Source: a virus (taxonomy: Duplodnaviria; Heunggongvirae; Uroviricota; Caudoviricetes). From it: a DNA stretch of 64,000 nucleotides. This document shows positions 41,185 to 62,656 of the stretch, one piece after another (positions within the stretch are counted from its first letter, which is position 1; the number at the start of each line of letters is the position of its first letter). Location: IMG/VR virus record IMGVR_UViG_2974588491_000001, positions 314,380-378,379 of that record, one strand, 5' to 3'. The translations under genes were made by a program, and so were the position numbers. The notes beneath the pieces are model-generated. The model was not told where the DNA came from. It was given only the letters and a program-made list of their open reading frames with translations, and made no database searches.

Positions 41185-42214
41185 ACTTTTATCTCCTTCT
41201 TATTTTTTTATACGTCTCTATTATACTATGATAGAAACTAATATAGGTATTTACCCACTTTATCATTCCTAGACACTCCTTAGAACACATGCTATAATCC
41301 CCCTAGAAGCTCGTAGAACGCTCTACAACGCACGTGTTTGATTCCTGTAGTATCGCTATTGCGATATCGAAAGGATTCAAACTAGCTAAAATAGCGTTCA
41401 CGATATTCTATGTATTAATATACAGTACTGTAATAATACACAATATGGATAAGTTATCAGTACTATATGTTTGTACAGGAAAAGATAGGTTCTATCTTAT
41501 AGTACTATAGAAGTACAGTTCAGTACTGTTGACCCCTTCCGCTATATCCGTTCCTGAAGTCGAATGCGAATAGCACAAAAAGTACAGCAACCTTTTTTCA
41601 AAAATGATAACATGAGGTTGGGAAAAATCTGGAGTGATCGTGAAATCAAATACGAATCAAGGAAATTTTGGAGTACCCTTCAGACTTTTTCTGAGATCTC
41701 GAAAGTACACCAAAGTAAAGACGCATCGTAGAAATTACGTTCAATACTATAATACAAATACAAAGTACTGAAAATTTATACAGTACTGTTATTATGCACA
41801 GTGCAATATAAATTTTAAAATCAGATGAAAAAAGTACTTGACGAGGGATGATGGAATTGATACTATAGCTACAAGTTAAGGAGACAGGCAACGGTCAAGC
41901 CTCTCAGCCACGTAGCCTGGAACCTTAACAGTACTGCAATGATGGTTGCCCCCTGATTTGCAGTCCTCTTACCAGAGGTGTTCTCTTCATTGCTTAGGAA
42001 ACATTAAGTACTAAGCGTGTTAAAAATTTGAAGTACTTTATAGTACTATGCAGTGTACATTCTACTAAGTCATCCTGCCAATAACTTTTGAATGTATAGT
42101 GCTAGTACTATATCTTTTTAAGTGAGAATATTAGTACTGTATAAGTACTGATGAATTACCAAAGTACAGATACAATGAGGGTATATGTTGTCTGAATTTT
42201 GGGTGTACTATCCC

Positions 42215-42360
42215 TATCTGCTATCTTCAGATGGATAGACTTCTGGCGGTGTAGATGGCTGGATGTTTAAACGTCTAGACTGCTATCCTTCTGGATGGCT
42301 AAAAGGCTAGATGGCTATCCGTATAGATGGATAGACGTTTAGACGGCTAAATGATTTTTT
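42215..42360. repeat. iteron-like cluster (AGATGG(A/C)TA(G/T)AC and inverted variants, at least 6 copies)
   Basis: e.g. agatggatagac x2, agatggctgga, ctagatggctatcc in the 2.2-kb non-coding region. Confidence 0.55.
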
Positions 42361-42530
42361 CTGTCAAAATTCCATTAGCTCCCCTTCCGCGACTGGATAG
42401 AACCAGGCAGAATCGAAAGTCGTCTTTTCGTGTTGACAGGGATATAATACCACACTGAAAAACAATTGCAAGGGATTTTTTGCAGAAAAATAAATTTGAC
42501 AAGTGAACCAGGATTATAGTACTATATAAG

Positions 42531-42643
42531 CAAGCCAGAGAAATGGCCTAGCCCACAGGGTGCGGAGATCCGTCTATTGCTTTTTATTTGAATTTTGGAC
42601 ACAATTCCGCACCCTGTGGGTCAAGGAGTTTCGCCTCCATGTA
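42531..42643 (+). repeat. inverted-repeat element copy A (CCCACAGGGTGCGGAG...CTCCGCACCCTGTGGG), ends AAGGAG-N8-ATGTAA start-stop
   Basis: 16-bp arms with ~38-bp spacer. Confidence 0.6.
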
Positions 42644-43254
42644 AAGTATTATGCCAGTACTGCGAACATAATGCAAGGACTTTTTACGATTTTCTTTAAA
42701 AAAGTTTCCCCTTCTATATACGTATAAAGGAAGCGTTTAGAGCGTGTCAGATCCTGGGGCTTACAGTTTTGTACTTTATACTTTATAAAGCCGTGTAAAG
42801 CGTCCTATGCGTTCCTTGTACGTGTATACGTATATAGAGAAGGAAAAGCCTGTTAGAAAGAATCTTATAAAAACTTATATAAAGTACTTGCAAAGGTTTT
42901 TTGGTGTGATAGTATTAATCCCGTCGAACAGGACAACGCTCTTTAAAAACTTGCTGGTGAATACTTAAACATGCCTCCAGGTACTTTGAAAAAAGAATCT
43001 GAGAGAATGAAAAAGTACTTGACAGCAAGAATAGAAAGTGTAGAATGTTCAATATCGAAAGGCGGTAAGGTTCGCCGGATGGTAGGAAGCGGTAGCAGGG
43101 CGATAAAGTACTGCTACAGTGATAAGCCGGAAGTGCTATCACAGCGTTATAAAGGTTAACATAACTGTTAACGTCCTATCTACTGCCTTTTGATTCTTTC
43201 AGTACGGTAAAAGGTACGAAAGAATAAAGATTCAGAAAGTTATCAAAAAGTACT

Positions 43255-43282
43255 TGACGGACTGAATCGCACGATGTAAGAT
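43255..43282 (+). promoter_or_regulatory. promoter (TTGACG-16-TAAGAT) for 43344..44021
   Basis: hexamers plus upstream AAAAGTACT. Confidence 0.5.
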
Positions 43283-43343
43283 GTTAAGTAAGCCGAGTGG
43301 CTAACCCAAAATTCAAAATTTAACTTTTAAGAAGGTATATATC

Positions 43344-44021
43344 ATGACTACTACTAACAACGCTAAAGCTACCAAAGTTACCCTGAACTCTATCGTTTTC
43401 GCTCCGGCTCCGGTACTGCGTGAACTGAAAGAAGGTGAAAACTACACCAAAACCGAACTGAAAGCCCACGAAAAAGAAATGGGCGAATATCTCCGCACCA
43501 CGTCGCACGATTTGGCGATGTACCTGGTAAACAAAACCGACAATACTGATACCATTGTCAAACTGTTTGCCGCTACCGCCGAAGCGATCCCTACAGTACT
43601 GGCCGAAGTACTGAAACAGCGTGAAGAAGAAGAAGCCGCTAAACAGGCTGAACGCGAAAAAGCGGAAGAAGAAAAACGTCGCCTCGCTGAACAGGAAGAA
43701 AAAGAACTGCAAGCGAAGAAAGATGAAATGCTTAAACACATGACCGATGTTCTGGGGCTGGATCTGGATGTTGCGAAAGCTGCGGTTGAAACGGTGGCGA
43801 AAAAGCTGAACGTTGGCAACCATACTAAAAACTCTTATGAGCGTGTAACCTGCACCATTGAAGGCAATCAGTACGATGTTCCGGTGCGTGGTAATATGTC
43901 TCAGGCACTGAAAGATCTGGCGGCGAAATATGGTTTCGCTGATGACCGCGATGGATTCATCGAAAAATTCCGCGATGAACCTGCAACTGCTGATGCTGAC
44001 AAAGATACCGCCGAAGCGTAA
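43344..44021 (+). CDS. abundant-type protein of unknown function (host-optimal codons, central charged coiled coil)
   Basis: AAGG RBS; codon usage CTG/CGT/GGT/AAA/GAA; EEEAAKQAEREKAEEEKRRLAEQEEKEL segment. Confidence 0.75.
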   Translation: MTTTNNAKATKVTLNSIVFAPAPVLRELKEGENYTKTELKAHEKEMGEYLRTTSHDLAMYLVNKTDNTDTIVKLFAATAEAIPTVLAEVLKQREEEEAAKQAEREKAEEEKRRLAEQEEKELQAKKDEMLKHMTDVLGLDLDVAKAAVETVAKKLNVGNHTKNSYERVTCTIEGNQYDVPVRGNMSQALKDLAAKYGFADDRDGFIEKFRDEPATADADKDTAEA

Positions 44022-44170
44022 TATCAAAAGTAATGCGGCAAGGGGGCTAGAAAGCCCCCTGAGCCTTTCTAACAGTACTGTAATACCTTTCCTCAAAGTA
44101 CTATTAGAAACGCTTAGAATCAATCCTACAGCGTTTTAAGATGTATACTTATTAAGTGAGAATAAACGCT

Positions 44171-44440
44171 ATGGAACTAAAACCACTTTCTGAACTCCGC
44201 GATAAAAAAACCATTGTCGCCAGGACAATGATCCACACTTCCCCACGTCAAAAGGTTTTATCTGGCTATCTGGTTTTTGTGCTGGATGGTAAACTAATAC
44301 AACGTCGGATCTATGATATGGCCTATAATAGTACTTTTATGAGTGCTATGTATATAGTTTACAAAGGCGTTAACTATGCCGTAGATCTTGCATGTAAGAC
44401 GATTAGCGGGGCTTTCAGCGTCGAAACGTTGAAAGTATAA
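44171..44440 (+). CDS. hypothetical protein
   Basis: ATG after TTAAGTGAGA motif, in frame with ORF 44156..44440. Confidence 0.5.
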   Translation: MELKPLSELRDKKTIVARTMIHTSPRQKVLSGYLVFVLDGKLIQRRIYDMAYNSTFMSAMYIVYKGVNYAVDLACKTISGAFSVETLKV

Positions 44441-44449
44441 GCCTACAAT

Positions 44450-44485
44450 CAAAAGCCCTTAGAAACGTTTCTAGGGGCTTTATAT
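44450..44485 (+). terminator. rho-independent terminator
   Basis: agcccttagaaacg/cgtttctaggggct stem followed by a T-rich tail. Confidence 0.55.
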
Positions 44486-44575
44486 TTGATTTTAAAAAGT
44501 ACTAAGAAAGTACTTGCAATTTATTTTTGAATCTGTAGAATACTCGTTATTGAAACACGTAACGAGATTTAAGAA

Positions 44576-44860
44576 ATGCAAGTAACACTGAACGGATTTA
44601 CTTTTACAAAGAATGTTGATGGTACTGATAACATTCAGTCAGTACTTAAAAACAAAGATAATAAAGCATTAGGCGGGATTGTCAAAGATGCTAAGAAGAT
44701 GGCAAACTTACAACGCCTGAAACGTTCGCCTGATGTTCTGGTATTCCTGGCTAAAGTACAGGAAGAAACTGAAAAAGTTTACTTTGAACAAAAGAAACCA
44801 AAACCTTACAATAAGTACAAAAGGAAATTTAATCCTTGCATTCATTCTATAAATGTGTAG
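44576..44860 (+). CDS. hypothetical protein
   Basis: 94-aa ORF after promoter AGTACTTGCAA...TAGAAT. Confidence 0.5.
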   Translation: MQVTLNGFTFTKNVDGTDNIQSVLKNKDNKALGGIVKDAKKMANLQRLKRSPDVLVFLAKVQEETEKVYFEQKKPKPYNKYKRKFNPCIHSINV

Positions 44861-44895
44861 AATGTCTTATATCGAAACGCGACGGAGTAAACAAG

Positions 44896-45285
44896 ATGGA
44901 AAGTAAAGCGAAGTTAGAACAATACAGATTAGTACTTGATGTACTGATTCAAATGAAAGATTGTATTGACAAAGATGATACTTATACTACAGTACTGAAT
45001 AAGTCATTCAATCTTTCTCGCTCCCTGGGTATCTGCTGGCATGTATATGTTCACACTCCACCAGCGGAGATCACTGGTATCGGATCGGACTATCTTGAAC
45101 CTGCATTCATTGCGTTAGGGCTTGATCGTGAATATCCGGTTGAATGCCAGGTTGATACTGATTCGCCGCGAATCCTGCACTTTACACAACGTAACCTTTA
45201 CGATCCTGATAACGAGTGCGGAAAGTTGCGGATCAAGTTGGTTAATGATTTGATTCAGTACTTTGAACAAAAGTTATCGCAGTAA
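44896..45285 (+). CDS. hypothetical protein
   Basis: GGAG RBS then ATG in frame with ORF 44836..45285. Confidence 0.5.
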   Translation: MESKAKLEQYRLVLDVLIQMKDCIDKDDTYTTVLNKSFNLSRSLGICWHVYVHTPPAEITGIGSDYLEPAFIALGLDREYPVECQVDTDSPRILHFTQRNLYDPDNECGKLRIKLVNDLIQYFEQKLSQ

Positions 45286-45300
45286 AAATCTTTACAAAAA

Positions 45301-45339
45301 AGAGGTTGACTTCGGTTGGCCTCTTATAGTACTATATTA
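45301..45339 (+). promoter_or_regulatory. PeSL cassette variant
   Basis: GAGGTTGACTTCGGTTGGCCTC hairpin followed by TATAGTACTATATTA. Confidence 0.5.
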
Positions 45340-45340
45340 A

Positions 45341-45451
45341 TAAGCCAGAACAAAGGCGTGACCCACAGGGTGCGGAGATCCGTTCAGTGAAAAGATAATG
45401 AATTTTAGATATAACTCCGCACCCTGTGGGTTAAGGAATTTCGCTTCCATG
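45341..45451 (+). repeat. inverted-repeat element copy B, ends AAGGAATTTCGCTTCC-ATG
   Basis: arms 45362-45377 and 45415-45430. Confidence 0.6.
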
Positions 45452-45661
45452 AATAATAATATACCACTGCTGGAAAGTACTGTCAAGGAAAAAAACAGGG
45501 GAACTTTCATGTTCCCCCTAAATGCGACAAAGGCATATATCGGACTTTGTGCGAGCTTCGTTGATCGCATGAGTACTATATCACAACGGCCAGGCGAGTG
45601 CAACTATTTGATCTGTGATAAAAATATACTTTCAAACGTGAAAAGTACTTGCAAAGAATGA
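45449..45661 (+). CDS. hypothetical protein starting at the ATG built into the IR element
   Basis: ATG in frame with ORF 45398..45661. Confidence 0.35.
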   Translation: MNNNIPLLESTVKEKNRGTFMFPLNATKAYIGLCASFVDRMSTISQRPGECNYLICDKNILSNVKSTCKE

Positions 45662-45708
45662 TTAAAGGAGTATACTTAACTTATCGAAACGAACAAGAGG
45701 ATTTAAAA

Positions 45709-45981
45709 ATGGCTAGTTACAGTGCGTCAATGATTGTTAAGGATTTAGCAGGAAAGCCGTGTTTAGCTTGCGGTTCCTTTGGTAACATTGCGATAGATGG
45801 TAGATTATCTATTTCCAGGGCGATAGAGATAGCGGAGGAAAGTTTTAAGAAAGAATCCAAATTTCAAAACAGCGAATACTTGGGATTTGTAATTGAGAAA
45901 ACTTCTCGATTCGTTGAATATCGTAATCCGAGTATTATCGGTAATAAAGAAGTAAAAACTTTTAAAGAACTTGAACGATAA
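45709..45981 (+). CDS. hypothetical protein
   Basis: GAGGA RBS then ATG in frame with ORF 45649..45981. Confidence 0.5.
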   Translation: MASYSASMIVKDLAGKPCLACGSFGNIAIDGRLSISRAIEIAEESFKKESKFQNSEYLGFVIEKTSRFVEYRNPSIIGNKEVKTFKELER

Positions 45982-46044
45982 TACTTGCAAAGTGGGTAAT
46001 GGTTTAGTACTATTACCCTATCGAAACGAACTGAGGATTTAAAG

Positions 46045-46491
46045 ATGGGAACTCCAGCATGTATCGCAGTAATGAACGACAATAAAGAAGTTACTTGGAC
46101 TTATGTTAACTATGACGGTTATTTAAACGGCGTAGGTAGAATGTTGATCGAGCATTACAACGATCTGTCAATAGCTAAAAAATTAATTTCAATGGGTGAT
46201 ATTTCAACATTGAAGCGAACGATGGATTGCCCCGTTGGTCACTCATTCGCTACACCTGCACCAAATTGCACAGTATTCTATGAGCGGGATCGTGGTGAAG
46301 ATAATGTAAAACCACGTCACGGCGATTATGCTATGTTCCTGCGTTGTAATAAAGGTACAATTAGTTATATCTACACGGATGGACAATGGCACATAGTACG
46401 GGAAACAAGTAAACGCGGTGCAATTTTAGACCGTCATAAATTGTTAGTACTTGGCGAAGTGTTATCCGGTTTATATGATTTTTCGCGTTAA
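46045..46491 (+). CDS. hypothetical protein
   Basis: 148-aa ORF. Confidence 0.55.
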   Translation: MGTPACIAVMNDNKEVTWTYVNYDGYLNGVGRMLIEHYNDLSIAKKLISMGDISTLKRTMDCPVGHSFATPAPNCTVFYERDRGEDNVKPRHGDYAMFLRCNKGTISYIYTDGQWHIVRETSKRGAILDRHKLLVLGEVLSGLYDFSR

Positions 46492-46509
46492 TTAAATTGT
46501 ATATAGTAC

Positions 46510-46537
46510 TTGCAAAATTCTGCGAGTACTATATAAT
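46510..46537 (+). promoter_or_regulatory. early promoter cassette (AGTACTTGCAA-N-GAGTACTATATAAT)
   Basis: conserved extended promoter family. Confidence 0.55.
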
Positions 46538-46567
46538 TACTTATATCTTAAACGGGAGAACAAAGAA

Positions 46568-47023
46568 ATGAAAGCTATCGAATTTGAACAGAAAGTAAGA
46601 GAATCCTTTTTGAAGTACTTCCCGAACGGGCATATTCGTTTATCTAAACTTGCTTTAGGTGGCGGCTTACATATTGCTTGCGGCCTGATTGCAAACGTTA
46701 AAGAGATCACCGCAACGATCAGACAAAACGACCCGTTAAACGTTTCTATCTTTATTCATGATAACTATGTATTCAATGATTCAGAAACGGATCTTGATAA
46801 TGTAGTACTTGAATTTGATAATTCTCATGTATCGGTTATTCCTGATAATCCGCACATGTACAGCCAATCGCACAAGATCGCAGCACGTAAAATTAACGCT
46901 GCACCAGAAAAAGCACTGGTAAACCTGGATAAGTATTTTAAACGTGTTAAAGATGTTGTCACAGAGCAAGCGGCATTAAACCGGATTATCAAACAAGATA
47001 CAATCGATCCTAAGTATCTGTAA
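46568..47023 (+). CDS. hypothetical protein
   Basis: 151-aa ORF with GGGAGAA RBS. Confidence 0.55.
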   Translation: MKAIEFEQKVRESFLKYFPNGHIRLSKLALGGGLHIACGLIANVKEITATIRQNDPLNVSIFIHDNYVFNDSETDLDNVVLEFDNSHVSVIPDNPHMYSQSHKIAARKINAAPEKALVNLDKYFKRVKDVVTEQAALNRIIKQDTIDPKYL

Positions 47024-47103
47024 AATTATTATCAAAAGTACTTGCAAAATGAATGCGAGTACTTTATAATAAAGTTACATTATTAATCAAGAGGAAGTAA
47101 CAA

Positions 47104-47229
47104 ATGGTCACTATCGAAAAAGTAAAAGAAATGCTGGAAGAACTCCGCGATCAGGGTTTTGTTGTTGCTGATACTGATGACGAATTAGAAGCAGCGGCAG
47201 AAATAGCATTGACCGTTTTAAATAGCTAA
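47104..47229 (+). CDS. small acidic protein (41 aa)
   Basis: AGAGGAAG RBS with own promoter cassette upstream. Confidence 0.4.
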   Translation: MVTIEKVKEMLEELRDQGFVVADTDDELEAAAEIALTVLNS

Positions 47230-47301
47230 TTAAAAATAGTACTTGCATTAATTTGTGAGTACTATATAATTACTTATATCGAAACAGCGGAGTAACTTGC
47301 A

Positions 47302-47529
47302 ATGATTGAATTTCGCAGAACTATGGAAATGTCTATCACTATCACTGACCCACGTTATACTGAGAAAGAGATCGCGGAAGGGTTATCTGACGGCTCAATG
47401 AATATGGGCGAAGAAGATGGCGAAGATGCAGGAAAGATTTTTAATAGTGCATGGGATGAAATCGCTACTATTGATGATCTTCATGTATCGGATGTTATGA
47501 CGCCGGATGTTCAATTTTCAGTGATTTAA
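47302..47529 (+). CDS. small acidic protein
   Basis: 75-aa ORF. Confidence 0.5.
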   Translation: MIEFRRTMEMSITITDPRYTEKEIAEGLSDGSMNMGEEDGEDAGKIFNSAWDEIATIDDLHVSDVMTPDVQFSVI

Positions 47530-47543
47530 TTATCAAAAGTACT

Positions 47544-47572
47544 TTGACAATTTTGTTAGAGTACTTTATAAT
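47544..47572 (+). promoter_or_regulatory. early promoter cassette (AAAAGTACTTTGACAA-N-GAGTACTTTATAAT)
   Basis: TTGACA-17-TATAAT. Confidence 0.6.
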
Positions 47573-47602
47573 TAACTTACATTAAGCGAGAGGATTTTAA
47601 AA

Positions 47603-48025
47603 ATGTTACAAGTCAGAGGTTATGCGGAAGGTGGTTTCTGTTTCATGTTGGATGATAAAGCGGTATCAGTACATGAAGCATTATTAGCGAATGGGGGTAA
47701 GTTTCATAAGAGAACCATTAACGCTCTTAATCGTAATAACCTGGCGAACGAACAAGATCTGGCAGAGTTTGAAAAGCTGGTAAAGGTTTTACATACTGGC
47801 TTAGATGCCTTTAATGCTCGTAAAGTACTGCGTGATCATTTCAATATTGATGTATTGAAGATTGAGAACTATTATATTTTAACTAGTTCTGAAATTTATG
47901 ATCTCATGAAAGTATATGAGATCTGTAAGTACAAAGTAAGTGTAAAAAGTCCTGCACACTCAACGATGTACTATTTCTTTGAGTACTTAAACCGGAAAGA
48001 TGTTCGCCGCCTGGAAAGAACATAA
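47603..48025 (+). CDS. hypothetical protein
   Basis: 140-aa ORF after TTAAGCGAGA motif. Confidence 0.55.
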   Translation: MLQVRGYAEGGFCFMLDDKAVSVHEALLANGGKFHKRTINALNRNNLANEQDLAEFEKLVKVLHTGLDAFNARKVLRDHFNIDVLKIENYYILTSSEIYDLMKVYEICKYKVSVKSPAHSTMYYFFEYLNRKDVRRLERT

Positions 48026-48033
48026 TTCAAGAA

Positions 48034-48067
48034 AGGGGTTGACTTCGGTTAGCCCCTTCTGTATACT
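48034..48067 (+). promoter_or_regulatory. PeSL cassette
   Basis: GGGGTTGACTTCGGTTAGCCCC followed by TATACT at 17 bp. Confidence 0.6.
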
Positions 48068-48074
48068 GTATTCA

Positions 48075-48112
48075 TTGGCAGATAAAGCCGCAAGCCCATA
48101 GGGTGCGGAGGT
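48075..48112 (+). repeat. IR-element half copy (GCCGCAAGCCCATAGGGTGCGGAG)
   Basis: left arm only. Confidence 0.5.
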
Positions 48113-48206
48113 ATGTCTGTAAGAATATAAATTTGAATAAAGTACTTGCAATCTATTTTAAAAGGCGTATACTTATCTATATCGAAACAACACAGAGGAA
48201 AACGAA

Positions 48207-48542
48207 ATGGAACAGACTACCCTGGTAAATGAAGATGCAATCATTGATTGTCTCCTGAATGTAATCCTTAACGCTGGCTATTGTGTAAGCGTGAATGATG
48301 GGGAATGTACTGTTATTAATCGCAGTACTGACAAAGAAGAGATTATGTCTGAGCTTCGCGGTACAGACAGCGATTGGATCAGAATTTATAAACCTGGTGA
48401 AGCCTACCATGTTGGATCTGTTGAACTGATTTACAACAATGGATCGGACGGATTAGATCTTATCAGTAATACAGCGGCAAGTGATTTAGAAGCCCTGGAT
48501 GAATTACTTATTCCAGTATATGAATTGATTGATACGCTGTAA
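48207..48542 (+). CDS. acidic hypothetical protein
   Basis: 111-aa ORF. Confidence 0.55.
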   Translation: MEQTTLVNEDAIIDCLLNVILNAGYCVSVNDGECTVINRSTDKEEIMSELRGTDSDWIRIYKPGEAYHVGSVELIYNNGSDGLDLISNTAASDLEALDELLIPVYELIDTL

Positions 48543-48558
48543 ACATTATCAAAAGTAC

Positions 48559-48587
48559 TTGCAATTAGAAAGCGAGTACTTTATAAT
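48559..48587 (+). promoter_or_regulatory. early promoter cassette (TTGCAA-17-TATAAT)
   Basis: ACATTATCAAAAGTACTTGCAA...GAGTACTTTATAAT. Confidence 0.6.
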
Positions 48588-48611
48588 GATTATATTAAAT
48601 CAGGAGGATAT

Positions 48612-48779
48612 ATGGACGAACTTTTAAAACTCTGGCAACAATTCAGTACTGTATCAGTTAACGATGATGATGAAATTGAAGAATCATTTTTGCACTTTGA
48701 AAAGGGAACAGACAGATTAGAAGTGTGGAAATGGTTTGAGAATCAGAATCCTGATTTTAAAGTATCTGATTTAGTTTAA
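48612..48779 (+). CDS. small acidic protein (55 aa)
   Basis: AGGAGGA RBS. Confidence 0.45.
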   Translation: MDELLKLWQQFSTVSVNDDDEIEESFLHFEKGTDRLEVWKWFENQNPDFKVSDLV

Positions 48780-48862
48780 TGTAAACATTATCAAAAGTAC
48801 TTTACTTATTTTGTAGAGTACTTTATAATGATTATAGTTAATTAAGAGAGAGGGTTTAAGAA

Positions 48863-49042
48863 ATGAAATTATATGCTTATGCGTCTAATAGTGGTGAAGC
48901 TATTGCAGTTGGTAGATCTGAGCGTGGTGCTAAATCTACTGCTACTAAAAACAAAAGTACTGAAATAGGTTATATCAGTACTATTAACAATATGTACATT
49001 CCTACTCATAAAAAAATTAATAATAAGTGGGTATCAATTTAA
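48863..49042 (+). CDS. small protein (59 aa)
   Basis: GAGAGGG RBS with own promoter cassette. Confidence 0.4.
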   Translation: MKLYAYASNSGEAIAVGRSERGAKSTATKNKSTEIGYISTINNMYIPTHKKINNKWVSI

Positions 49043-49114
49043 TGTATATAAGTACTTGCAAGTTATTTGTGAGTACTATATAATGATTGTACTTTAAGTG
49101 AGAGGAAAGAAAAC

Positions 49115-49486
49115 ATGAATCCAGTATATGAAATCCAGGCAGATATTTTCAACACGTTCTCTGAGATCGTTACACGTGGTCATGATGAGGAATCATACAA
49201 AAGAGAACAGGCCAGAATCCAGAATGATATTAACCGCCTTAAATTAGTGCGGGATCGTTATGCCTGTAATACTCTTATGACTAGCATGTTTTGCAATGTC
49301 ATGTTGCGTAAAATGTGCCTGGCTTATCGTTATGAGGGTATTCTTTATTGTACGGCTAATAATGTCCCTGGCCGTCCAAATACTGACTACTTACATACAT
49401 TAAACTTAACATCGGATCAATGGGATAGTTTAAAACAATTCCATGTATGGATCAGTACTGGCGATGTATACGCTCCAGTGCCTTAA
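49115..49486 (+). CDS. hypothetical protein
   Basis: TTAAGTGAGAGGAAAG pre-start; terminator follows. Confidence 0.55.
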   Translation: MNPVYEIQADIFNTFSEIVTRGHDEESYKREQARIQNDINRLKLVRDRYACNTLMTSMFCNVMLRKMCLAYRYEGILYCTANNVPGRPNTDYLHTLNLTSDQWDSLKQFHVWISTGDVYAPVP

Positions 49487-49493
49487 TTAACTA

Positions 49494-49518
49494 TAGGGGA
49501 ACATTGTTCCCCTTTTTA
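49494..49518 (+). terminator. rho-independent terminator
   Basis: agggaacattgttcccct followed by a T-run. Confidence 0.6.
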
Positions 49519-49532
49519 AGTGAGATCCGCCT

Positions 49533-49787
49533 ATGAATATTTTTTATCAAACTAACAGGTTATGCGTTGCATTTGATTGTGATTCTGATAAAATACAATG
49601 CGTAATCTACCGGAAAGGAACGGCGGTATATGATAACTGGAAAGTACTACAATCATATACAATGCGGCGTAAAGGTTTTAAACGCCTGGATAATCGAACA
49701 CAGAAAGCGGCCTTGCGACAAATGATCAAAGCAATGCGGAACCGTCAAACAATGGCTTTAAACATTGCACTTAACAGTAAGGAATGA
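49533..49787 (+). CDS. small basic protein
   Basis: 84-aa ORF. Confidence 0.45.
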   Translation: MNIFYQTNRLCVAFDCDSDKIQCVIYRKGTAVYDNWKVLQSYTMRRKGFKRLDNRTQKAALRQMIKAMRNRQTMALNIALNSKE

Positions 49788-49791
49788 TACA

Positions 49792-49950
49792 ATGATTCAT
49801 GATGTGGTTATTACTCTGACAGTACAATCTGATAATGAAGTACTGACTAACGACGAAATTATAAAGGCGATGGAAGAAAAACTATCCCTGATGAAAGCCG
49901 AACCGCAAATGGTTAAAGAGCTTGCGGAATCCGCAGAAGTGTTTGATTAA
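49792..49950 (+). CDS. small acidic protein (52 aa)
   Basis: AAGGAATG RBS then ATG in frame with ORF 49765..49950. Confidence 0.4.
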   Translation: MIHDVVITLTVQSDNEVLTNDEIIKAMEEKLSLMKAEPQMVKELAESAEVFD

Positions 49951-49957
49951 TTAAAAA

Positions 49958-49991
49958 AGGGGTTGACATATGTTAGCCCCTTCTGTATACT
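49958..49991 (+). promoter_or_regulatory. PeSL cassette
   Basis: GGGGTTGACATATGTTAGCCCC followed by TATACT at 17 bp. Confidence 0.6.
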
Positions 49992-50002
49992 GTATTCATT
50001 GA

Positions 50003-50031
50003 AATAAATTAGCCCACAGGGTGCGGAGATG
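50003..50031 (+). repeat. IR-element half copy
   Basis: AGCCCACAGGGTGCGGAG. Confidence 0.5.
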
Positions 50032-50239
50032 TATCTATTAAAAAAGTACTGTATACTTAACCAGTACCTATCAAATATAAATTCAAACGAAAAAAGTACT
50101 TGCAATGGATGATAAAAGGAGTATAATTGTTTACATGGAAGGGCAAGAGGTGAAAGGTAATGAGTCGCAGTACTGAAATAGTTCTGTTTATCTTTGTACT
50201 AGTAGCACTATCTATTAATTTTAATTGAGAGGATTCAAA

Positions 50240-50473
50240 ATGTCTTTATATGATGTAACTGTAAACAGTACTGGTATTGGTCGTTCTGGTACTACTAAGA
50301 TGCTGGCTGTTGCTTTCTTTCCTCATATGAATGAAGCAAGACAAGGTATCAATGAGTGGGTATCAGAGAACTTTGTTGCTCCGGTAACTGTGAGTGTTGA
50401 ATTAAAATCTCACTCAAATATTATCTATCCATCAGAAGTCCAGGGATATGAGCGTATTGTAATTATTGAATAA
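50240..50473 (+). CDS. small hypothetical protein
   Basis: GAGAGGA RBS then ATG in frame with ORF 50225..50473. Confidence 0.5.
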   Translation: MSLYDVTVNSTGIGRSGTTKMLAVAFFPHMNEARQGINEWVSENFVAPVTVSVELKSHSNIIYPSEVQGYERIVIIE

Positions 50474-50488
50474 TTCATTAAAAGTACT

Positions 50489-50517
50489 TTGACAAAATGG
50501 TTAGAGTACTTTATAAT
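50489..50517 (+). promoter_or_regulatory. early promoter cassette (TTGACA-17-TATAAT)
   Basis: AAAAGTACTTTGACAAAATGGTTAGAGTACTTTATAAT. Confidence 0.6.
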
Positions 50518-50544
50518 GTAGTTATTGAGTGGGGAGGAAACAAA

Positions 50545-50655
50545 ATGCAATTTGTTTTCGGTGCAATTAGTGGTGTACTGATTTATCTGAATTGGGATGT
50601 TATCAGTCCCTGGATTGAATCAGTACTGAAATTTACATTAACCTTTTTTAATTGA
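50545..50655 (+). CDS. tiny hydrophobic peptide (36 aa)
   Basis: GGGGAGGA RBS. Confidence 0.35.
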   Translation: MQFVFGAISGVLIYLNWDVISPWIESVLKFTLTFFN

Positions 50656-50666
50656 GAGAAACAAAA

Positions 50667-50870
50667 ATGGCACAGAAAGATCGTCGTTATGCTATCGCTG
50701 CTGAGTTCACTGGTCACGCTTCTGGTAAGAAACGTTTTGTACTGCGTTTTGAAGGTACTCGCGTATCCGATCATGGTTCCCGTTATGAAGCGGAACAGGA
50801 GATCGCGAAGTACAAGAAAGCGGGTACTATCCCTAACGTGAATGGTTCACGTTTGCTGGTGGAGGCGTAA
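50667..50870 (+). CDS. small basic protein
   Basis: GAGAGAAA RBS then ATG in frame with ORF 50652..50870. Confidence 0.5.
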   Translation: MAQKDRRYAIAAEFTGHASGKKRFVLRFEGTRVSDHGSRYEAEQEIAKYKKAGTIPNVNGSRLLVEA

Positions 50871-51046
50871 TGCGGGAGTTTGCATTGTATGACAAGGTAC
50901 ACATGGAAAGGGAATATCCGTTAAGTACTAAGAAAGTACTTGATACTGTACCCGATATTTCTGATCATGAAGTTGAACGTATTATCAACATGAATGTATC
51001 AGAAAGTATTGAGATTGATAATACTATTATCATTCGTACACTGTAA
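50870..51046 (+). CDS. small protein (58 aa)
   Basis: TAATG coupling. Confidence 0.4.
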   Translation: MREFALYDKVHMEREYPLSTKKVLDTVPDISDHEVERIINMNVSESIEIDNTIIIRTL

Positions 51047-51065
51047 AAAAACATTATCAAAAGTA

Positions 51066-51095
51066 CTTGCTAATAGAATGCGAGTACTTTATAAT
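51066..51095 (+). promoter_or_regulatory. early promoter cassette (TTGCTA-18-TATAAT), copy 1 of an exact ~50-bp duplicate
   Basis: ATTATCAAAAGTACTTGCTAATAGAATGCGAGTACTTTATAATGTA. Confidence 0.55.
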
Positions 51096-51124
51096 GTACT
51101 TATATTAAGCGAGAGAATAAAGAA

Positions 51125-51328
51125 ATGAAAAGACTTCAAATTGACGTATCGGAACAAGCATTCAATCAATTGAAAGAATTGAAGGGTAAATGTGAAAGTG
51201 CTAGTTACGCAGATGTTACCCAAAAAGCATATAAAGTACTCGACTTCTTTATGAATGCAAAAGCTGATGGCAAATCTATAATTGTCGTAGATAAAGATGG
51301 TAAAGAAACGATAGTAGAAATGCTTTAA
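51125..51328 (+). CDS. small hypothetical protein
   Basis: 67-aa ORF after TTAAGCGAGA. Confidence 0.5.
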   Translation: MKRLQIDVSEQAFNQLKELKGKCESASYADVTQKAYKVLDFFMNAKADGKSIIVVDKDGKETIVEML

Positions 51329-51378
51329 CTATATTATCAAAAGTACTTGCTAATAGAATGCGAGTACTTTATAATGTA
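51329..51378 (+). repeat. exact duplicate of promoter cassette 51048-51097
   Basis: identical ~50-bp string 280 bp apart. Confidence 0.6.
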
Positions 51379-51405
51379 GTTATTGAATCAAACAGAGATA
51401 AAGAA

Positions 51406-51708
51406 ATGAAAACTCCACATCATAAAGCGTATGAATATCATTATTACTTTGTTGGTAAAGATGGTATTCCTTATGTAGCAAAAAACTATCTCGCTGTAGT
51501 TCCTGGCGTTAATGTTGAAATGCTGATTAAACGCTGGAACCTTGCTGCTGGTCATGGTCGGAAGTATGTTCTTAAAGGTGAGGTGGATCTTAAAACAGCT
51601 TTATATACTCGCGGCAGTACTGGAACTATGATTGCGAATGATTGGAAGTTACTCGATCATATGCAATTCCACGGTATTGAATTTGAAGTAAAACAAATCG
51701 CAGCATAA
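51406..51708 (+). CDS. hypothetical protein
   Basis: ATG in frame with ORF 51358..51708. Confidence 0.5.
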   Translation: MKTPHHKAYEYHYYFVGKDGIPYVAKNYLAVVPGVNVEMLIKRWNLAAGHGRKYVLKGEVDLKTALYTRGSTGTMIANDWKLLDHMQFHGIEFEVKQIAA

Positions 51709-51770
51709 TTACAAAGTACTGGTGAAATATCCAGTACTGTTTTTATGTACAGTACTATATCCATTGAATA

Positions 51771-51790
51771 CATCTCCGCACCCTGTGGGC
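51771..51790 (+). repeat. IR-element right-arm copy (CTCCGCACCCTGTGGG)
   Basis: isolated arm. Confidence 0.45.
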
Positions 51791-51934
51791 TGTAGCATTG
51801 TTCTTGCTATGTGATAATAATATACTAGTACTTATATAATGTCAAGGAAATAATTATACTTTCAAACGTGAATTTGTCCTTGCATTTATTAATTAGTACT
51901 GTATAATACTTGTATTGAATCGGGAGAACGAACA

Positions 51935-52186: not shown

Positions 52187-52217
52187 TATAGTACACGAAT
52201 TGAAACGGAGAGATACT

Positions 52218-52376: not shown

Positions 52377-52384
52377 GGTTTTAA

Positions 52385-53260: not shown

Positions 53261-53275
53261 GTACTGAATACTACA

Positions 53276-53302
53276 AAAGCCTAGCAATGTCTAGGCTTTT
53301 TT
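53276..53302 (+). terminator. rho-independent terminator
   Basis: aagcctagcaatgtctaggctt followed by a T-run. Confidence 0.65.
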
Positions 53303-56714: not shown

Positions 56715-56749
56715 AAGGTTGACTTCGGTCGGCCTTTTTTGTTATACTT
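56715..56749 (+). promoter_or_regulatory. PeSL cassette
   Basis: AGGTTGACTTCGGTCGGCCTTTTTTGTTATACT. Confidence 0.6.
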
Positions 56750-56762
56750 ACTTTATTGGCAG

Positions 56763-56792
56763 ATAAGCCGTTAGCCCATTGGGTGCGGAGTT
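56763..56792 (+). repeat. IR-element half copy (GCCGTTAGCCCATTGGGTGCGGAG)
   Basis: left arm only. Confidence 0.5.
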
Positions 56793-56946
56793 ATGTCATT
56801 TTTAAGTACTTTCTATTTTGAAAATATTATACAAAAACTTATAAAAAGTCCTTGCAGATAATTCTGATTCTGCTATTATAACCACATCAAGACGGGGCAA
56901 CGTCTTAGAAAACAAAATTCAAATATTAAGTGAGAGGCAGTACAAA

Positions 56947-57611: not shown

Positions 57612-57649
57612 ACAAAGTACTTGACTCCGGTTGAGTACTTTAGTATTAT
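57612..57649 (+). promoter_or_regulatory. PeSL variant with AGTACT in the stem (TTGACT-17-TATTAT)
   Basis: AGTACTTGACTCCGGTTGAGTACT. Confidence 0.55.
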
Positions 57650-57811
57650 ATATTCATTGGCAGATAAGCCGTTACCTACAAGGTGCATAATTGTATCTGT
57701 ATAAAAGAAAATATAAATTCAAATAAAAAACTTGCATTTATCCGTCAGTACTGTATAATGATTTACATGGATTAGGGAATGGCCTTAATCATTTTAAGTG
57801 AGAATACTATC

Positions 57812-58930: not shown

Positions 58931-58964
58931 AGTACTTGACTCCGGTCAGGTACTTTGCTATTAT
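58931..58964 (+). promoter_or_regulatory. PeSL variant (AGTACTTGACTCCGGTCAGGTACT, TATTAT at 17 bp)
   Basis: hairpin plus hexamers. Confidence 0.55.
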
Positions 58965-58975
58965 GTATACATAGC

Positions 58976-59006
58976 AAGAACAATGCTTTAGCCCATAGGG
59001 TGCAGG
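58976..59006 (+). repeat. IR-element half copy (GCTTTAGCCCATAGGGTGCAGGAG)
   Basis: degenerate left arm. Confidence 0.45.
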
Positions 59007-59127
59007 AGTGTAGTTATAGTATAAGGATGTAGTACTGAAAGAAATATAAAGTTAAATGAAAAATTCCCTTGCTTTCTTTCTTTCGTGTGGTATACTTTAG
59101 TTATTGAAACAGAGCGGAGTTTGAAAA

Positions 59128-62305: not shown

Positions 62306-62364
62306 TCGTTTTGAAGCAAAAAAATTCCTTGACCTTCCCTGCGATATTTGAGAGAATACCTACA

Positions 62365-62465
62365 AGCCAGAACAAAGGCGTAGCCCACCGGGTGCATAGG
62401 CACGTCCAAAATTCAGTACTCAAATTTTAGATAGATCTCCGCACCCTGTGGGTCAGACCGTTACA
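62365..62465 (+). repeat. inverted-repeat element copy C (degenerate left arm, perfect right arm)
   Basis: CCCACCGGGTGCATAG ... CTCCGCACCCTGTGGG. Confidence 0.55.
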
Positions 62466-62656
62466 CCGGTTTATGTACTTATTATACATCAACCACGAAT
62501 CAATGCAATACCCTAGAGAAAATAAAATTATAAATTCAAACGAAAAAATACTTGTATTTGTTTGCTGGTGGAGTTAATATCTATTCATCGAAACAAACAA
62601 CGGCAAGACGAAACAGCCGATAACGTCAAGCCCAACTACGCCTAGAGGAATTCATC

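Follow-up and report, generated by a model that had tools for sequence, protein, structure and literature searches.

The repeated object in the terminal repeat of vB_PcaM_CBB is a unit of ~85 bp that consists of a strong host-type promoter and a short structured non-coding RNA leader. The window, i.e., the whole stretch of 64,000 nucleotides analyzed here, is the final 64 kb of the record of this Pectobacterium jumbo phage, and its positions 41545-64000 are the 22.5-kb direct terminal repeat (DTR) of CBB. The original prediction had described an element of ~110 bp bounded by 16-bp inverted repeats, present as full copies and as copies of a single arm. We have found that the "full copies" are two modules placed face to face and that the "half copies" are solo modules. 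The module is an RNA motif not described before and represents a variant on the theme of the PeSL (promoter-early stem-loop) promoter cassettes. Overall, the best explanation is probably that these promoter-leader modules act as early non-coding RNAs or leaders; the RNAs inferred would be stable and structured and would bind a factor through one of their hairpins.

The 5' part of the module contains an A-rich upstream stretch and then a near-consensus sigma70 -35 box, which usually lies within a G/C or AGTACT hairpin that is also terminator-like, as in the PeSL type. Seven bases past the -10 box there is an invariant A, the predicted +1 (82/82). A hairpin of 3-5 bp (P1) starts from +3/+4, with a freely covarying stem and a purine-rich loop (GNGAAA, AGAACAA or AGATAA), and a linker of 3-5 nt separates it from P2, a second hairpin that is nearly invariant (RCCC-AYA-GGGU). 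GC and four variable bases follow P2, and after them comes a semi-conserved box, (A/G)TGTATCTAT or ATCCGTCY. P1 occurs with at least 12 different stems, including GCC/GGC, GGC/GCC, AGC/GCT, GTC/GAC, AGAC/GTCT, CCAC/GTGG, GAA/TTC, GCA/TGC, CCA/TGG, and CCTG/CAGG. The possibility that the box is a three-codon ORF (NTG TAT CTA TAG) was discarded, since the GGAG abuts the NTG and the second allele, ATCCGTC, has no start codon. RegB (GGAG) sites are also improbable, as the GGAG tail is too variable (GGAR, ATAG, ATAA, CGAG, CAAG), and CRISPR-repeat mimicry was likewise set aside.

The DTR of CBB contains 12 modules, eight on the gene-sense strand and four antisense. Their predicted starts lie near 42532, 45342, 48074, 49998, 56755, 57656, 58971, and 62364 on the plus strand and near 42640, 45450, 51810, and 62472 on the minus strand, and the modules are arranged as follows (bit scores are those of the covariance model):

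42496..42581, plus strand: module A+; -35 TTGACA at 42496, -10 TACTAT at 42520-42525, predicted +1 near 42532, promoter 10/12; RNA with P1 GCCA/TGGC, P2 GCCC-ACA-GGGT, GCGGAG and the box ATCCGTCTAT, with a predicted 5' hairpin; model match at 42528-42581, 70.7 bits.
42591..42676, minus strand: module A-, convergent with A+; -35 TTGCAT at 42676-42671, -10 CATAAT at 42653-42648; P1 GGAG-GCGAAA-CTCC, which on the plus strand reads AAGGAG...ATG TAA; model match at 42591-42644, 69.8 bits.
45306..45391, plus strand: module B+, left half of the element originally flagged; TTGACT-18-TACTAT at 45306-45335, with the -35 within the hairpin AGAGGTTGACTTCGGTTGGCCTCT; +1 A at 45342, P1 at 45344-46/45355-57, P2 at 45361-64/45368-71; 63.9 bits.
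45401..45486, minus strand: module B-, right half of the flagged element; TTGACA-17-TATATT (TG-extended) at 45486-45458; +1 A at 45450, P1 at 45445-48/45435-38, P2 at 45428-31/45421-24; 70.2 bits.
45497..45518, minus strand: terminator-like hairpin and T-run just upstream of the B- promoter, a PeSL-type arrangement.
48039..48124, plus strand: solo sense module; TTGACT-17-TATACT; P1 TGGC-AGATAAA-GCCG; 30.5 bits; downstream, a second promoter (48146-48173) and then gp015 (ATG at 48207).
49963..50042, plus strand: solo sense module; TTGACA-17-TATACT; short AT-only P1; 44 bits; adjoined by the LexA-box-like sequence TACTGTATACTTAACCAGTA at 50047.
51715..51738, both strands: bidirectional intrinsic terminator AGTACTGG...CCAGTACT, from the terminator scan.
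51760..51845, minus strand: solo antisense module; TTGACA-17-TATTAT at 51845-51817, +1 near 51810; P1 TAGCA/TGCTA; 45.5 bits; RNA fold z = -3.0.
56719..56804, plus strand: solo sense module; P1 TGGC-AGATAA-GCCG; core GCCCATTGGGTGC; hairpin of 11 bp around the -35 (56713-56738, TTCG loop).
57621..57704, plus strand: solo sense module with a compensated P2, ACCT-ACA-AGGT; 22.5 bits.
58936..59021, plus strand: solo sense module; P1 AGCA-AGAACAA-TGCT; degenerate 16-mer tail; 37.5 bits.
62329..62413, plus strand: module C+; TTGACC-17-GAGAAT; arm CCCACCGGGTGCATAG; 57.3 bits.
62423..62508, minus strand: module C-; -35 TTGCAT at 62508-62503, -10 TATAAT at 62486-62481; P1 ACCG-GTGTAA-CGGT; 66.8 bits.

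The recurring 16-bp inverted repeat is real. A pattern search with CCCACAGGGTGCGGAG allowing up to three mismatches yielded 10 matches versus 0.07 expected, with at most one in any of 100 shuffles, and all of them fall within 42552-62452, i.e., inside the DTR. Three full copies had been proposed, and they correspond to the inverted pairs 42552/42605, 45362/45415, and 62384/62437, with 37 nt between the arms in each. The left-arm-only copies were recovered as solo arms at 48095, 50013, and 56775 and as degenerate ones at 57675 (CCTACAAGGTGCATAA) and 58992, and the right-arm-only copy as a solo right arm at 51774. The conserved ATTGGCAGATAAGCCG segment noticed beside the arms is also present and constitutes the P1 hairpin of one paralogue type. 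The claimed linkage to PeSL promoters holds as well, since a sigma70-type promoter precedes every arm, with the -35 mostly within a hairpin. What had been missed is that the right arms have their own promoters on the minus strand (TTGACA-17-TATATT at 45486-45458; TTGACA-17-TATTAT at 51845-51817). In fact, a TTGAC(A) promoter and a P1 hairpin accompany each arm in the arm's own orientation, whichever strand it is on.

A promoter scoring at least 9/12 is found at the right distance from 82% of 104 core motifs versus 7% of random positions. In the window, 12/12 modules have a sigma70-like promoter; 11 of these score 8-11 of 12, and the twelfth, that of the module at 50012 (TTGACA-17-TATACT, 49963-49991), scores 11/12, as do the promoters of the minus-strand modules. 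Hairpins of 11-12 bp with TTCG/TCCG loops enclose the -35 at 56713-56738, 57614-57641, and 58929-58956, and GGGGTTGAC...CCCC is found at 48036 and 49960; the -35 hairpin is absent at modules A+ and C+. The predicted module transcripts open with P1 and P2, without an SD or ATG, and a second promoter, SD, and ATG are located 60-130 nt further on. The non-module promoter-like sites inspected lead directly into an SD and ATG. Several small CDSs annotated in CBB, gp007 and gp008 among them, overlie promoters and RNA structure and are probably not genes.

The RNA structure is sustained by covariation. On an alignment that was also fitted to the covariance model, P1 shows changes on both sides in 4/4 pairs, with 93.6% of the cells paired, and P2 is 99% paired, with two compensatory CCU/AGG cases. 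The covariation score of P1 is 0.371 versus 0.128 in shuffles (0/500 reach it) and at most 0.04 in slid controls. RNAalifold recovers both P1 and P2, again on the alignment fitted to the model. Many of the P1 variants represent paralogue types that different genera have inherited in common, and thus, the independent covariation events are far fewer than the cell counts. A direct comparison of orthologues, CBB 45430(-) and GAP32 6686(-), reveals three compensated pairs (GGAA/TTCC versus GACG/CGTC). P2 is nearly without covariation, its pairing resting on the two compensated cases, the variable length and sequence of the loop, and an A-U/G-U closing pair. There are 34 G.U cells versus 3 A.C cells, indicating that the pairing is specific to the promoter-sense strand. 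Folded from the predicted starts, the 5' ends of the module transcripts have a mean of -3.5 kcal/mol (75% at or below -3) versus a mean of -0.9 (12% at or below -3) for 69 other promoter-like sites, whose 5' start is unstructured. P1 begins 2-3 nt past the invariant A, which places the stem within ~3 nt of the predicted starts. In the sense solo modules, folding and the terminator scan detected no terminator and, apart from P1 and P2, no significant structure. Two further pairings, of the P1 loop with the box (as a pseudoknot) and of the GCGG tail with the linker, were considered and rejected, as each appeared in single copies only and inconsistently across the alignment. A conserved transcribed 5' leader or small RNA, one of the possibilities raised originally, is therefore the best reading, given the strand-specific covariation, the fixed distance to the -10 box, and the invariant +1 A.

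The covariance model detected 91 matches at E < 0.01 in nine related genome regions. There are 11 in the window, all in the DTR; the twelfth copy (56774) was identified via the core motif only and lies below the E = 0.01 cut. The module is found in every sampled lineage of the clade, i.e., Mimasvirus, Eneladusvirus, Alcyoneusvirus, Asteriusvirus, and unclassified members, and the contigs that carry it are all ~350 kb long, except one of 109 kb. In fENko-Kae01, all matches are inside the DTR (1-19736, defined with PhageTerm). The pairs are syntenic across genera, and orthologous module positions are conserved. The derived pattern had no match in 185,579 bacterial and archaeal species genomes, and blastn, which is insensitive to seeds shorter than ~20 nt, found none in 5,426 E. 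coli genomes. An Rfam scan of the DTR gave only sub-threshold matches to miRNA precursors (29.6 bits versus a gathering score of 107), which are generic hairpins, and ARAGORN found no tRNA or tmRNA genes in 41545-64000. None of the papers with the 12-mer concerns these phages. The CBB paper describes RpoD-like promoters and not the module, and the fENko-Kae01 paper does not mention promoters.

The closest known counterparts are the PeSL cassettes of the T4-type phages RB49/phi1, PST, and nt-1 (Arbiol et al., 2010, PMC2839356; Comeau et al., 2014, PMC4122927). Both share a strong sigma70-like promoter with A/T-rich upstream sequence, a GGGG...CCCC-type stem-loop that is also terminator-like, an arrangement in dense arrays within ORFan-rich early regions, and a conserved stretch of ~100 bp that could act as a recombination linker. 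However, a PeSL runs up to and includes the SD and start codon of the ORFan downstream, and a conserved structure in its transcript has not been described, whereas the module continues into a two-hairpin non-coding leader with an invariant 12-mer and then a second ordinary promoter. Moreover, the module occurs on both strands and in convergent pairs, and it is confined to the terminal repeat of the Rak2-like jumbo phages, a different clade. The promoter half of the module does fit the PeSL recombination-linker concept. The gene order beside pair B is swapped between CBB and GAP32, and a block of six genes lies between the members of the split pair 50012(+)/51790(-).

An alternative, which we regard as unlikely, acts at the DNA level. 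According to it, the 12-16-mer and the box would form an operator at approximately +20 to +50, bound by a phage or host protein for promoter shut-off or Q-like loading, or else a PeSL-like recombination linker whose copies gene conversion keeps uniform, with P1 as a separate matter. The core CCCAYAGGGTGC is indeed invariant in sequence and does not covary, the promoter half matches PeSLs, which have been proposed as recombination linkers (PMC2839356), and the gene order differs beside pair B. In addition, sites resembling those of host repressors adjoin the modules at fixed offsets. LexA-box-like sites lie +35-37 from the core in 12 modules, with candidates at 50047-50066 and 51735-51754 in the window, and Fur-box-like sites are found at the pair dyad in related phages, KP13-7 and Munch among them. 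Nevertheless, the flanks of the P2 loop stay complementary while the loop itself differs between copies in sequence and length (3 or 4 nt), the two CCU/AGG variants are independently compensated, and the excess of G.U over A.C would be meaningless for duplex DNA. The orientation is also always locked to the promoter at a fixed distance. As for gene conversion, the paralogue types are individually conserved across genera, and thus, homogenization by this process must be weak.

A second alternative retains the element as originally conceived, i.e., a single transcript of ~110 nt whose hairpin of 16-20 bp and loop of ~37 nt would be a processing site (e.g., for RNase III), a coupling device or a regulator site, the half copies being decayed; we consider it rather improbable. 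The flagged element 45341-45451 coincides with the facing modules B+ and B-, and predicted starts (here 45342 and 45450) are ~109 bp apart in 3/3 CBB pairs, with the identical 37-nt spacing already mentioned. There are 19 convergent pairs in 11 loci, with quantized spans of 71, 72-73, 82, and 90-91 nt. The RNA of pair B can fold into a hairpin of ~20 bp (-47.7 kcal/mol, z = -7.9), and a perfect RNA duplex of 17-20 bp is a plausible RNase III substrate. So far the predicted stem-loop stands, but not as a 110-nt cassette maintained as a unit. Covariation of the arms had been set as the test, and no compensatory change was found: the arms differ at 3.15 of 17 positions within pairs versus 3.28 between unpaired modules of the same genome, so that the long stem is not kept by compensatory change. 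Besides, the arms are unequal in length in 6/19 pairs, pair C has three uncompensated mismatches in 16, the right arms carry their own promoter and P1 on the other strand, and solo motif matches (66/104) outnumber the paired ones and are equally conserved. The long hairpins of pairs A-C are not among the terminator-scan matches; UUAAGG/UCAAGG follows them, and without a U-tract they are not intrinsic terminators.

The SD-ATG that had been seen at the end of the full copies (AAGGAG/AAGGAA-N8-ATG) exists in pairs A and B but is absent from pair C. It is not conserved in GAP32 either, where the orthologue of pair B reads ...gtcttgatag. The mini-ORF of copy A (ATG-TAA) was rejected as such, being the reverse complement of the minus-strand module's P1 (GGAG-GCGAAA-CTCC) and of its TTACAT start region, and position 45450, the +1 A of B-, is the middle base of the ATG in copy B. 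Since the SD-ATG mirrors the opposite module and is not conserved, the idea of a translational coupling device is not supported. The 70-codon ORF of copy B does open at ATG 45449, but it is an N-terminal extension of the annotated gp008, and it crosses the minus-strand promoter and the terminator-like hairpin. The pairs keep fixed spacings (71, 82, and 90 nt) and are conserved across genera, which suggests a separate function for the convergent arrangement. This arrangement resembles the face-to-face promoter switches, such as pR/pL of coliphage 186, and cis-antisense pairs in having strong convergent promoters ~110 bp apart, which would yield fully complementary RNAs and be expected to interfere, but no lysis-lysogeny decision or toxin ORF is involved, and both partners are the same module.

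Quite unlikely is also a processive antitermination of the nut/put kind, in which RNA polymerase would be modified by the nascent P1 (boxB-like) and P2, with or without a phage protein, and would then read through the DTR terminators. As in lambda nut (boxA-boxB) and HK022 put, there are small promoter-proximal hairpins, two per module, on early phage RNAs; the region is packed with terminators, those at 49495 and 51715 among them, and sense modules are spaced every 0.9-6.8 kb along the DTR. The short stem and purine loop of P1 (GAGAAA, GCGAAA, GAAAAA) recall boxB, whose loops are GNRA-like, although the likeness is in form only. In contrast to those systems, there is no sequence similarity, and boxA or ops motifs are found near 0/104 modules; the boxA consensus (CGCTCTTA / TGCTCTTTA) gave no exact match near them and two or three with one mismatch. 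No N-like protein was found, as Pfam revealed N-, Q- or NusG-like domains in 0/30 DTR proteins. The modules are present in ~12 copies per repeat, one third of them antisense and thus opposed to the genes, and some of these antisense modules point at a bidirectional terminator, so that their simplest product is a short RNA. Finally, nearly every gene has its own promoter, so that read-through is not obviously needed.

That the element is a MITE or a host-derived repeat of the REP/ERIC type, which would account for terminal inverted repeats of 16-17 bp in several intergenic copies, is very improbable, and with it the mobile cassette initially envisaged, since the flanks carry no direct repeats indicative of target-site duplication, every arm is a whole promoter-leader module, the positions are orthologous between genera, and the searches of 185,579 species genomes and, by blastn, of 5,426 E. 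coli genomes gave no match.

Returning to the promoter-leader modules, a working scheme can be proposed. The host RNA polymerase would transcribe them once the terminal repeat enters the cell. In E. coli, 5'-terminal stem-loops of the ompA type stabilize mRNA, and RppH and RNase E need an unpaired 5' end. By analogy, P1, which leaves no more than ~3 unpaired 5' nucleotides, would shield the RNA from RppH/RNase E 5'-end-dependent decay. The ompA-type stabilizers share with P1 the location 2-3 nt from the predicted 5' end and a stem that is free to vary while its pairing is conserved, but the module couples this hairpin to an invariant second one, is multi-copy, and is not joined directly to a CDS. 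P2 and the following GC keep their sequence, not merely their pairing, and thus a conserved trans-acting factor, from the phage or the host, most likely recognizes them. Pfam recognized only Band_7 and DUF932 among the 30 DTR proteins, with no candidate binding protein.

The products of the modules would be abundant non-coding early RNAs. The antisense module 51760..51845 runs into the bidirectional terminator at 51715-51738, which is predicted to end both the gp026 transcripts and the module RNA, so that a stand-alone RNA of ~100 nt (51811->51703) would be its predicted product. The sense modules would yield long and structured leaders that precede the next gene together with its ordinary promoter, SD, and ATG. 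The RNAs of convergent pairs would be complementary, and their long hairpin would be a by-product rather than a selected structure, although RNase III cleavage or mutual interference might make use of it. PA5oct, a distantly related jumbo phage, also encodes non-coding RNAs in its long DTR; these are highly expressed, each accounting for 2-5% of the phage reads, early and throughout infection (PMC7318152). Those RNAs are, however, single-copy and 236-451 nt long and have no sequence or structure match to the module; in the 7-24 kb region of PA5oct, no model match was better than E = 0.27.

A bolder proposal, which we regard as doubtful, is that the modules are clade-specific immediate-early regulatory RNA genes in which P2 captures or reprograms a conserved host component, with LexA/Fur gating in some relatives and the pairs serving as a dsRNA or interference device. 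If this were true, the host component would be RNA polymerase (as for the put RNA), the degradosome or an RNA-sensing defense factor, and the RNAs, encoded by 12 module copies in each terminal repeat and thus 24 in a packaged genome, would be active during the first minutes following entry of the terminal repeat, with host LexA/Fur bound just downstream at fixed positions.

The Rak2-like jumbo phages (CBB, GAP32, RaK2, K64-1, PBECO4-like phages, BF, and others) may serve in therapy and biocontrol, and their terminal repeats of ~20 kb consist almost wholly of ORFans without known regulation. A motif with more than 100 instances and clear covariation, tied strictly to the strongest host-type promoters and restricted to the DTR, makes the first step of infection accessible to concrete tests. 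Should no host factor bind the invariant hairpin, the module would still be a new RNA family for Rfam and would refine the PeSL concept; if it does bind one, it would be a new phage takeover RNA.

The flagged element at 45341-45451 (~110 bp) lies in the terminal repeat of Pectobacterium phage vB_PcaM_CBB (CBB), and it consists of two convergent copies of a promoter-leader module, since its right arm carries promoter-leader features of its own on the minus strand. A search for the 16-mer arm CCCACAGGGTGCGGAG, allowing at most 3 mismatches, gave 10 matches against 0.07 expected, all within 42552-62452, and thus the repeat described in the original prediction is real and far beyond chance. Every arm was laid out with its flanks on the strand reading CCCACAGGG..., and upstream of the right arms, on the minus strand, the same features were found as upstream of the left arms on the plus strand; they are not passive partners. 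From 5' to 3', the module contains an A-rich stretch, a -35 box TTGAC(A) usually placed within a hairpin, a -10 box, the dinucleotide CA, a hairpin (P1), a linker of 3-5 nt, the 16-mer and the box (A/G)TGTATCTAT or ATCCGTCY; we regard this architecture as very likely correct. Its core motif, RCC[CT]-N3-4-RGGTG[CT] (R = A or G), occurs 104 times in eleven genome regions, and a sigma70 promoter of at least 9/12 is found at the right distance from 82% of these occurrences vs 7% of random positions. In the window the promoter is present at 12/12 core-motif copies, that of copy 50012 (49963-49991, 11/12) lying slightly beyond the distance window of this test.

Modules and associated features in the window
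42552/42605, 45362/45415, 62384/62437: arm starts of the inverted pairs A, B and C, arms 37 nt apart in each
48095, 50013, 56775: solo left arms
57675, 58992: degenerate left arms
51774: solo right arm
42551, 45361, 48094, 50012, 56774, 57674, 58991, 62383 (+): the eight plus-strand core copies
42621, 45431, 51790, 62453 (-): the four minus-strand core copies
45486-45458 (-): promoter TTGACA-17-TATATT, 11/12, TG-extended (promoter scan)
51845-51817 (-): promoter TTGACA-17-TATTAT, 11/12 (promoter scan)
51715-51738 (both strands): terminator-like hairpin, from the same scan
56713-56738, 57614-57641, 58929-58956 (+): composite terminator-promoters, -35 TTGAC in the 5' arm of an 11-12 bp TTCG/TCCG hairpin

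The core idea of the original prediction, a conserved leader or small RNA behind promoters of the promoter-early stem-loop (PeSL) type, was right. Its unit, a 110-nt hairpin ending in a Shine-Dalgarno (SD) sequence and ATG, was not: the unit is the module, and the pairs are two facing modules, whose predicted starts in pair B (45342 and 45450) lie ~109 bp apart, as they do in pairs A and C. This layout also explains the supposed AAGGAG/AAGGAA-N8-ATG, which is the reverse complement of the P1 of the minus module (GGAG-GCGAAA-CTCC or GGAA-GCGAAA-TTCC) plus the TTACAT or TTCAT start region; the ATG-TAA of pair A is TTACAT read in reverse. It is missing from pair C, and the orthologue of pair B in phage GAP32 reads ...gtcttgatag.

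A covariance model with P1 and a second hairpin (P2) specified was built on 16 in-register copies and gave 91 matches (E < 0.01) in nine genome regions, from CBB, GAP32, Serratia BF, Klebsiella KP13-7, RaK2, fENko-Kae01, Salmonella Munch, Yersinia fHe-Yen9-04 and Erwinia Hallingskeid; further copies were found in Xanthomonas XbC2 and Escherichia EJP2. In the alignment fitted to this model, from which the covariation was counted, P1 shows changes on both sides at 4/4 pairs (pair 9-59: GC 26, AU 18, UA 14, CG 2; pair 10-58: CG 33, GC 29), and 93.6% of its cells are paired. Its covariation score was 0.371, against 0.128 in shuffled alignments (0/500 reached 0.371) and at most 0.04 in slid controls, and RNAalifold recovered both P1 and P2 from the same model-fitted alignment. 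At least a dozen distinct P1 stems exist, but many P1 types are paralogue lineages common to several genera (e.g., TGGC-AGATAA-GCCG, AGCA-AGAACAA-TGCT), and thus the independent covariation events are far fewer than the cell counts. In the orthologous minus modules of pair B, the P1 stem GGAA/TTCC of CBB corresponds to GACG/CGTC in GAP32, a difference of three compensated pairs. In the CA dinucleotide the A does not vary (82/82 distinct sequences); it falls 7 nt past the -10 box and is therefore the predicted +1, placing the start of P1 at +3/+4. We consider it likely that P1 is an RNA hairpin.

The form of the leader fits a nut/put-like antitermination site. Against this possibility, boxA and ops motifs were not found near the modules, one third of the modules are antisense, and in a Pfam search of 30 DTR proteins (DTR, direct terminal repeat) only Band_7 and DUF932 domains were recognised and no N/Q-like protein was found.

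The second hairpin (R-CCC / AYA / GGG-U) is near-invariant and 99% paired. A DNA operator or a recombination linker would account for such an invariant core, and the analogy with PeSL also favours it, but three features of the leader speak for RNA instead. Two compensated P2 variants, CCU...AGG, exist (CBB 57674 and Yen9-04 4519). The P2 loops differ in sequence and length (ACA, ATA, ATT, ACC, AGA, ACG, TATA, TAGA, TCAA). The wobble pairs are strand-specific: P1 and P2 together contain 34 G.U cells vs 3 A.C cells, and thus the pairing is sensible only on the promoter-sense strand, i.e., as RNA. The pairing of P2 is supported by these variants, by its varied loops and also by its closing pair, for which 49 sequences have A-U and 31 have G-U.

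The original prediction read the element as a single-hairpin processing site, and the RNA of pair B can indeed be folded into a ~20-bp hairpin (-47.7 kcal/mol, z = -7.9). This reading is weakened by arms that lack compensatory changes and by pairs with unequal arms. Among 19 convergent pairs in eleven loci, 6 have arms of unequal length; in the other 13, the arms differ at 3.15/17 positions, no closer than unpaired modules of the same genome (3.28), so that the expected co-variation of the long stem was not found, and in pair C of CBB 3 of 16 positions are mismatched without compensation. The long hairpin was therefore rejected as a selected structure. The position of the convergent layout is nevertheless conserved across genera, with quantised spans of 71, 72-73, 82 and 90-91 nt, and the arrangement may itself be functional, for instance through interference or dsRNA, which the module model does not explain.

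The module is restricted to this phage clade and to the DTR. By megablast, 42000-46000 matched the CBB genome (NC_041878, 378,379 bp) with 100% identity, and by its coordinates the window covers the final 64 kb of that record. A "redundant repeat" of 22,456 bp is annotated at the left end of the record, so that 41545-64000 is its right copy (window coordinate = record coordinate in the left copy + 41544). All model hits in the window fall in this copy, with none in the 41.5 kb upstream. For fENko-Kae01 the DTR was determined by PhageTerm as 1-19736 (PMC11218385), and every hit fell within it in a search reaching 10 kb past its end. The derived pattern CCCAYAGGGTGC-N5-TNTATCTA matched 13 stretches in IMG/VR, on contigs of 345-366 kb except one of 109 kb, and had 0 matches among the 185,579 species genomes of bacteria and archaea; this absence of host copies, and of any detected target-site duplication, speaks against the rival reading as a MITE or host repeat. 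Neither an Rfam family for the motif nor a blastn match of the consensus in the E. coli genome collection was found. The distant relative PA5oct expresses two ncRNAs highly from its 39-kb DTR by RNA-seq (PMC7318152), indicating that DTR-encoded ncRNAs exist in the wider phage group, and no module copy was found in the 17 kb of that DTR searched, which holds both ncRNAs.

PeSLs were described as a strong sigma70 promoter that is AT-rich upstream and carries a GGGG...CCCC stem-loop doubling as terminator; the cassette ends with the SD and ATG of the ORFan that follows, with no conserved transcribed structure in the definition (Arbiol et al., 2010, PMC2839356; Comeau et al., 2014, PMC4122927). 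The promoter half of the module is a PeSL in this sense, its stem-loop often taking the form of a hairpin of 11-12 bp that has a TTCG or TCCG loop and contains the -35 box. In the composite terminator-promoters a T-rich tail containing the -10 box follows the hairpin, and given its G.T pairs the hairpin is strand-specific and would form in plus-strand read-through RNA. Unlike PeSLs, the modules do not end in SD and ATG: sense modules are followed 60-130 nt further on by an ordinary promoter, SD and ATG, whereas the non-module promoter-like sites inspected have SD and ATG directly after the start. We also folded the first 24 nt of the predicted transcripts from all promoter-like sites of at least 10/12 in the window. 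Module promoters (n = 8) gave a mean MFE of -3.5 kcal/mol, with 75% at or below -3, vs -0.9 kcal/mol and 12% for the other sites (n = 69). Together with the SD-ATG at the inspected sites, this fold contrast marks the module promoters as a predicted distinct non-coding class. Lacking the SD-ATG end and having a conserved transcribed structure, the module joins a PeSL-type promoter to a conserved non-coding leader of two hairpins and falls outside the described PeSL classes; it is set apart by its presence on both strands, its convergent pairs and its occurrence in Rak2-like jumbo phages. The CBB genome paper (PMC5259590) describes RpoD-like promoters and does not contain the element.

The DTR holds ~52 small genes, nearly all on the plus strand, and no tRNA-like genes were found in it. 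Two annotated CDSs, gp007 (45337-45510, -) and gp008 (45509-45661, +), overlie pair B together with the promoter on the minus strand and a hairpin resembling a terminator, have no counterpart in the GAP32 annotation and are probably not genes. The two genes adjoining pair B are swapped between CBB (44576-45285) and GAP32 (region L034, 5797-6543): gp005 resembles GAP32_008 and gp006 resembles GAP32_007, the GAP32 order being 007 then 008, which is consistent with module-mediated shuffling. A "split" convergent pair, 50012(+)/51790(-), encloses about six small genes in a block of ~1.7-2.2 kb with a bidirectional terminator at its end; the arrangement is kept also in GAP32 (L034 10707/12884) and BF (L035 6869/9116) and resembles the insertion of a cassette between two modules that face each other. 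In the first ~1.8 kb of the DTR (41545-43344; notable stretches 42205-42350 and 42380-42440), the longest ORF has at most 81 codons on both strands. This region has an iteron-like array (gatggatagac, tagatggct, tagac) and blocks, pair A included, at ~77% DNA identity with Serratia, Erwinia and Yersinia relatives, and it could be an origin or genome-end processing region.

Several other short sites were observed. The palindrome AGTACT occurs 276 times in the window vs 19.5 expected (14-fold), both in the DTR and in the upstream 41 kb (e.g., 45328, 45476, 51716, 51733, 51750). It adjoins -35 (AGTACTTGACA / AGTACTTGCAA) and -10 (CAGTACTGTATAAT) boxes, forms stems in many terminator and promoter hairpins, and may serve as a general self-complementary building block or be bound by a protein. 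Five LexA (SOS) box-like sites TACTG-N10-CAGTA (41766, 48308, 50047, 51717, 51735) are all in the DTR; that at 51735 reads TACTGTACATAAAAACAGTA on the minus strand (17/20 consensus positions) and differs very little from the umuDC operator of E. coli. Such a box lies downstream of 17/104 modules (11 loci), and for 12 of these its distance from the core is fixed at +35-37 nt, against a background expectation of 1.3%. In KP13-7, fENko-Kae01, Munch, Hallingskeid and BF (L036 20053, L039 7309, L040 7434, L037 19378, L035 1034), the convergent pairs of 82 and 90 nt have Fur-box-like 19-mers at their dyad, for example GAGAATGATAATCATTTAC (16/19) and GATAATGATAATCATTTAC (17/19). At up to 4 mismatches, the 11 loci contain 29 Fur-like sites vs 3.2 in shuffles, with none in CBB or GAP32.

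We propose that the module promoters would be fired by host RNA polymerase upon entry of the DTR into the cell. In E. coli RNA decay, 5'-terminal stem-loops block the entry of RppH and RNase E; by analogy, P1, leaving at most ~3 unpaired 5' nucleotides, would stabilise the RNA, a role that we propose tentatively. In P2 the sequence itself is kept, not merely the pairing, and thus the most likely role of P2+GC, put forward with similar caution, is that of a putative binding site for a conserved factor. Upstream of membrane-protein/SPFH genes, antisense solo modules (without a partner) are conserved in CBB, GAP32, BF and Yen9-04; each points towards the upstream gene's terminator, which in CBB was reported on both strands, and would yield an RNA of ~100 nt. 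No terminator was found downstream of sense modules, which would give the following early mRNA a long leader. As an RNA motif the element is undescribed and well supported, and it would be of greater interest if P2 did bind RNA polymerase or a host factor.
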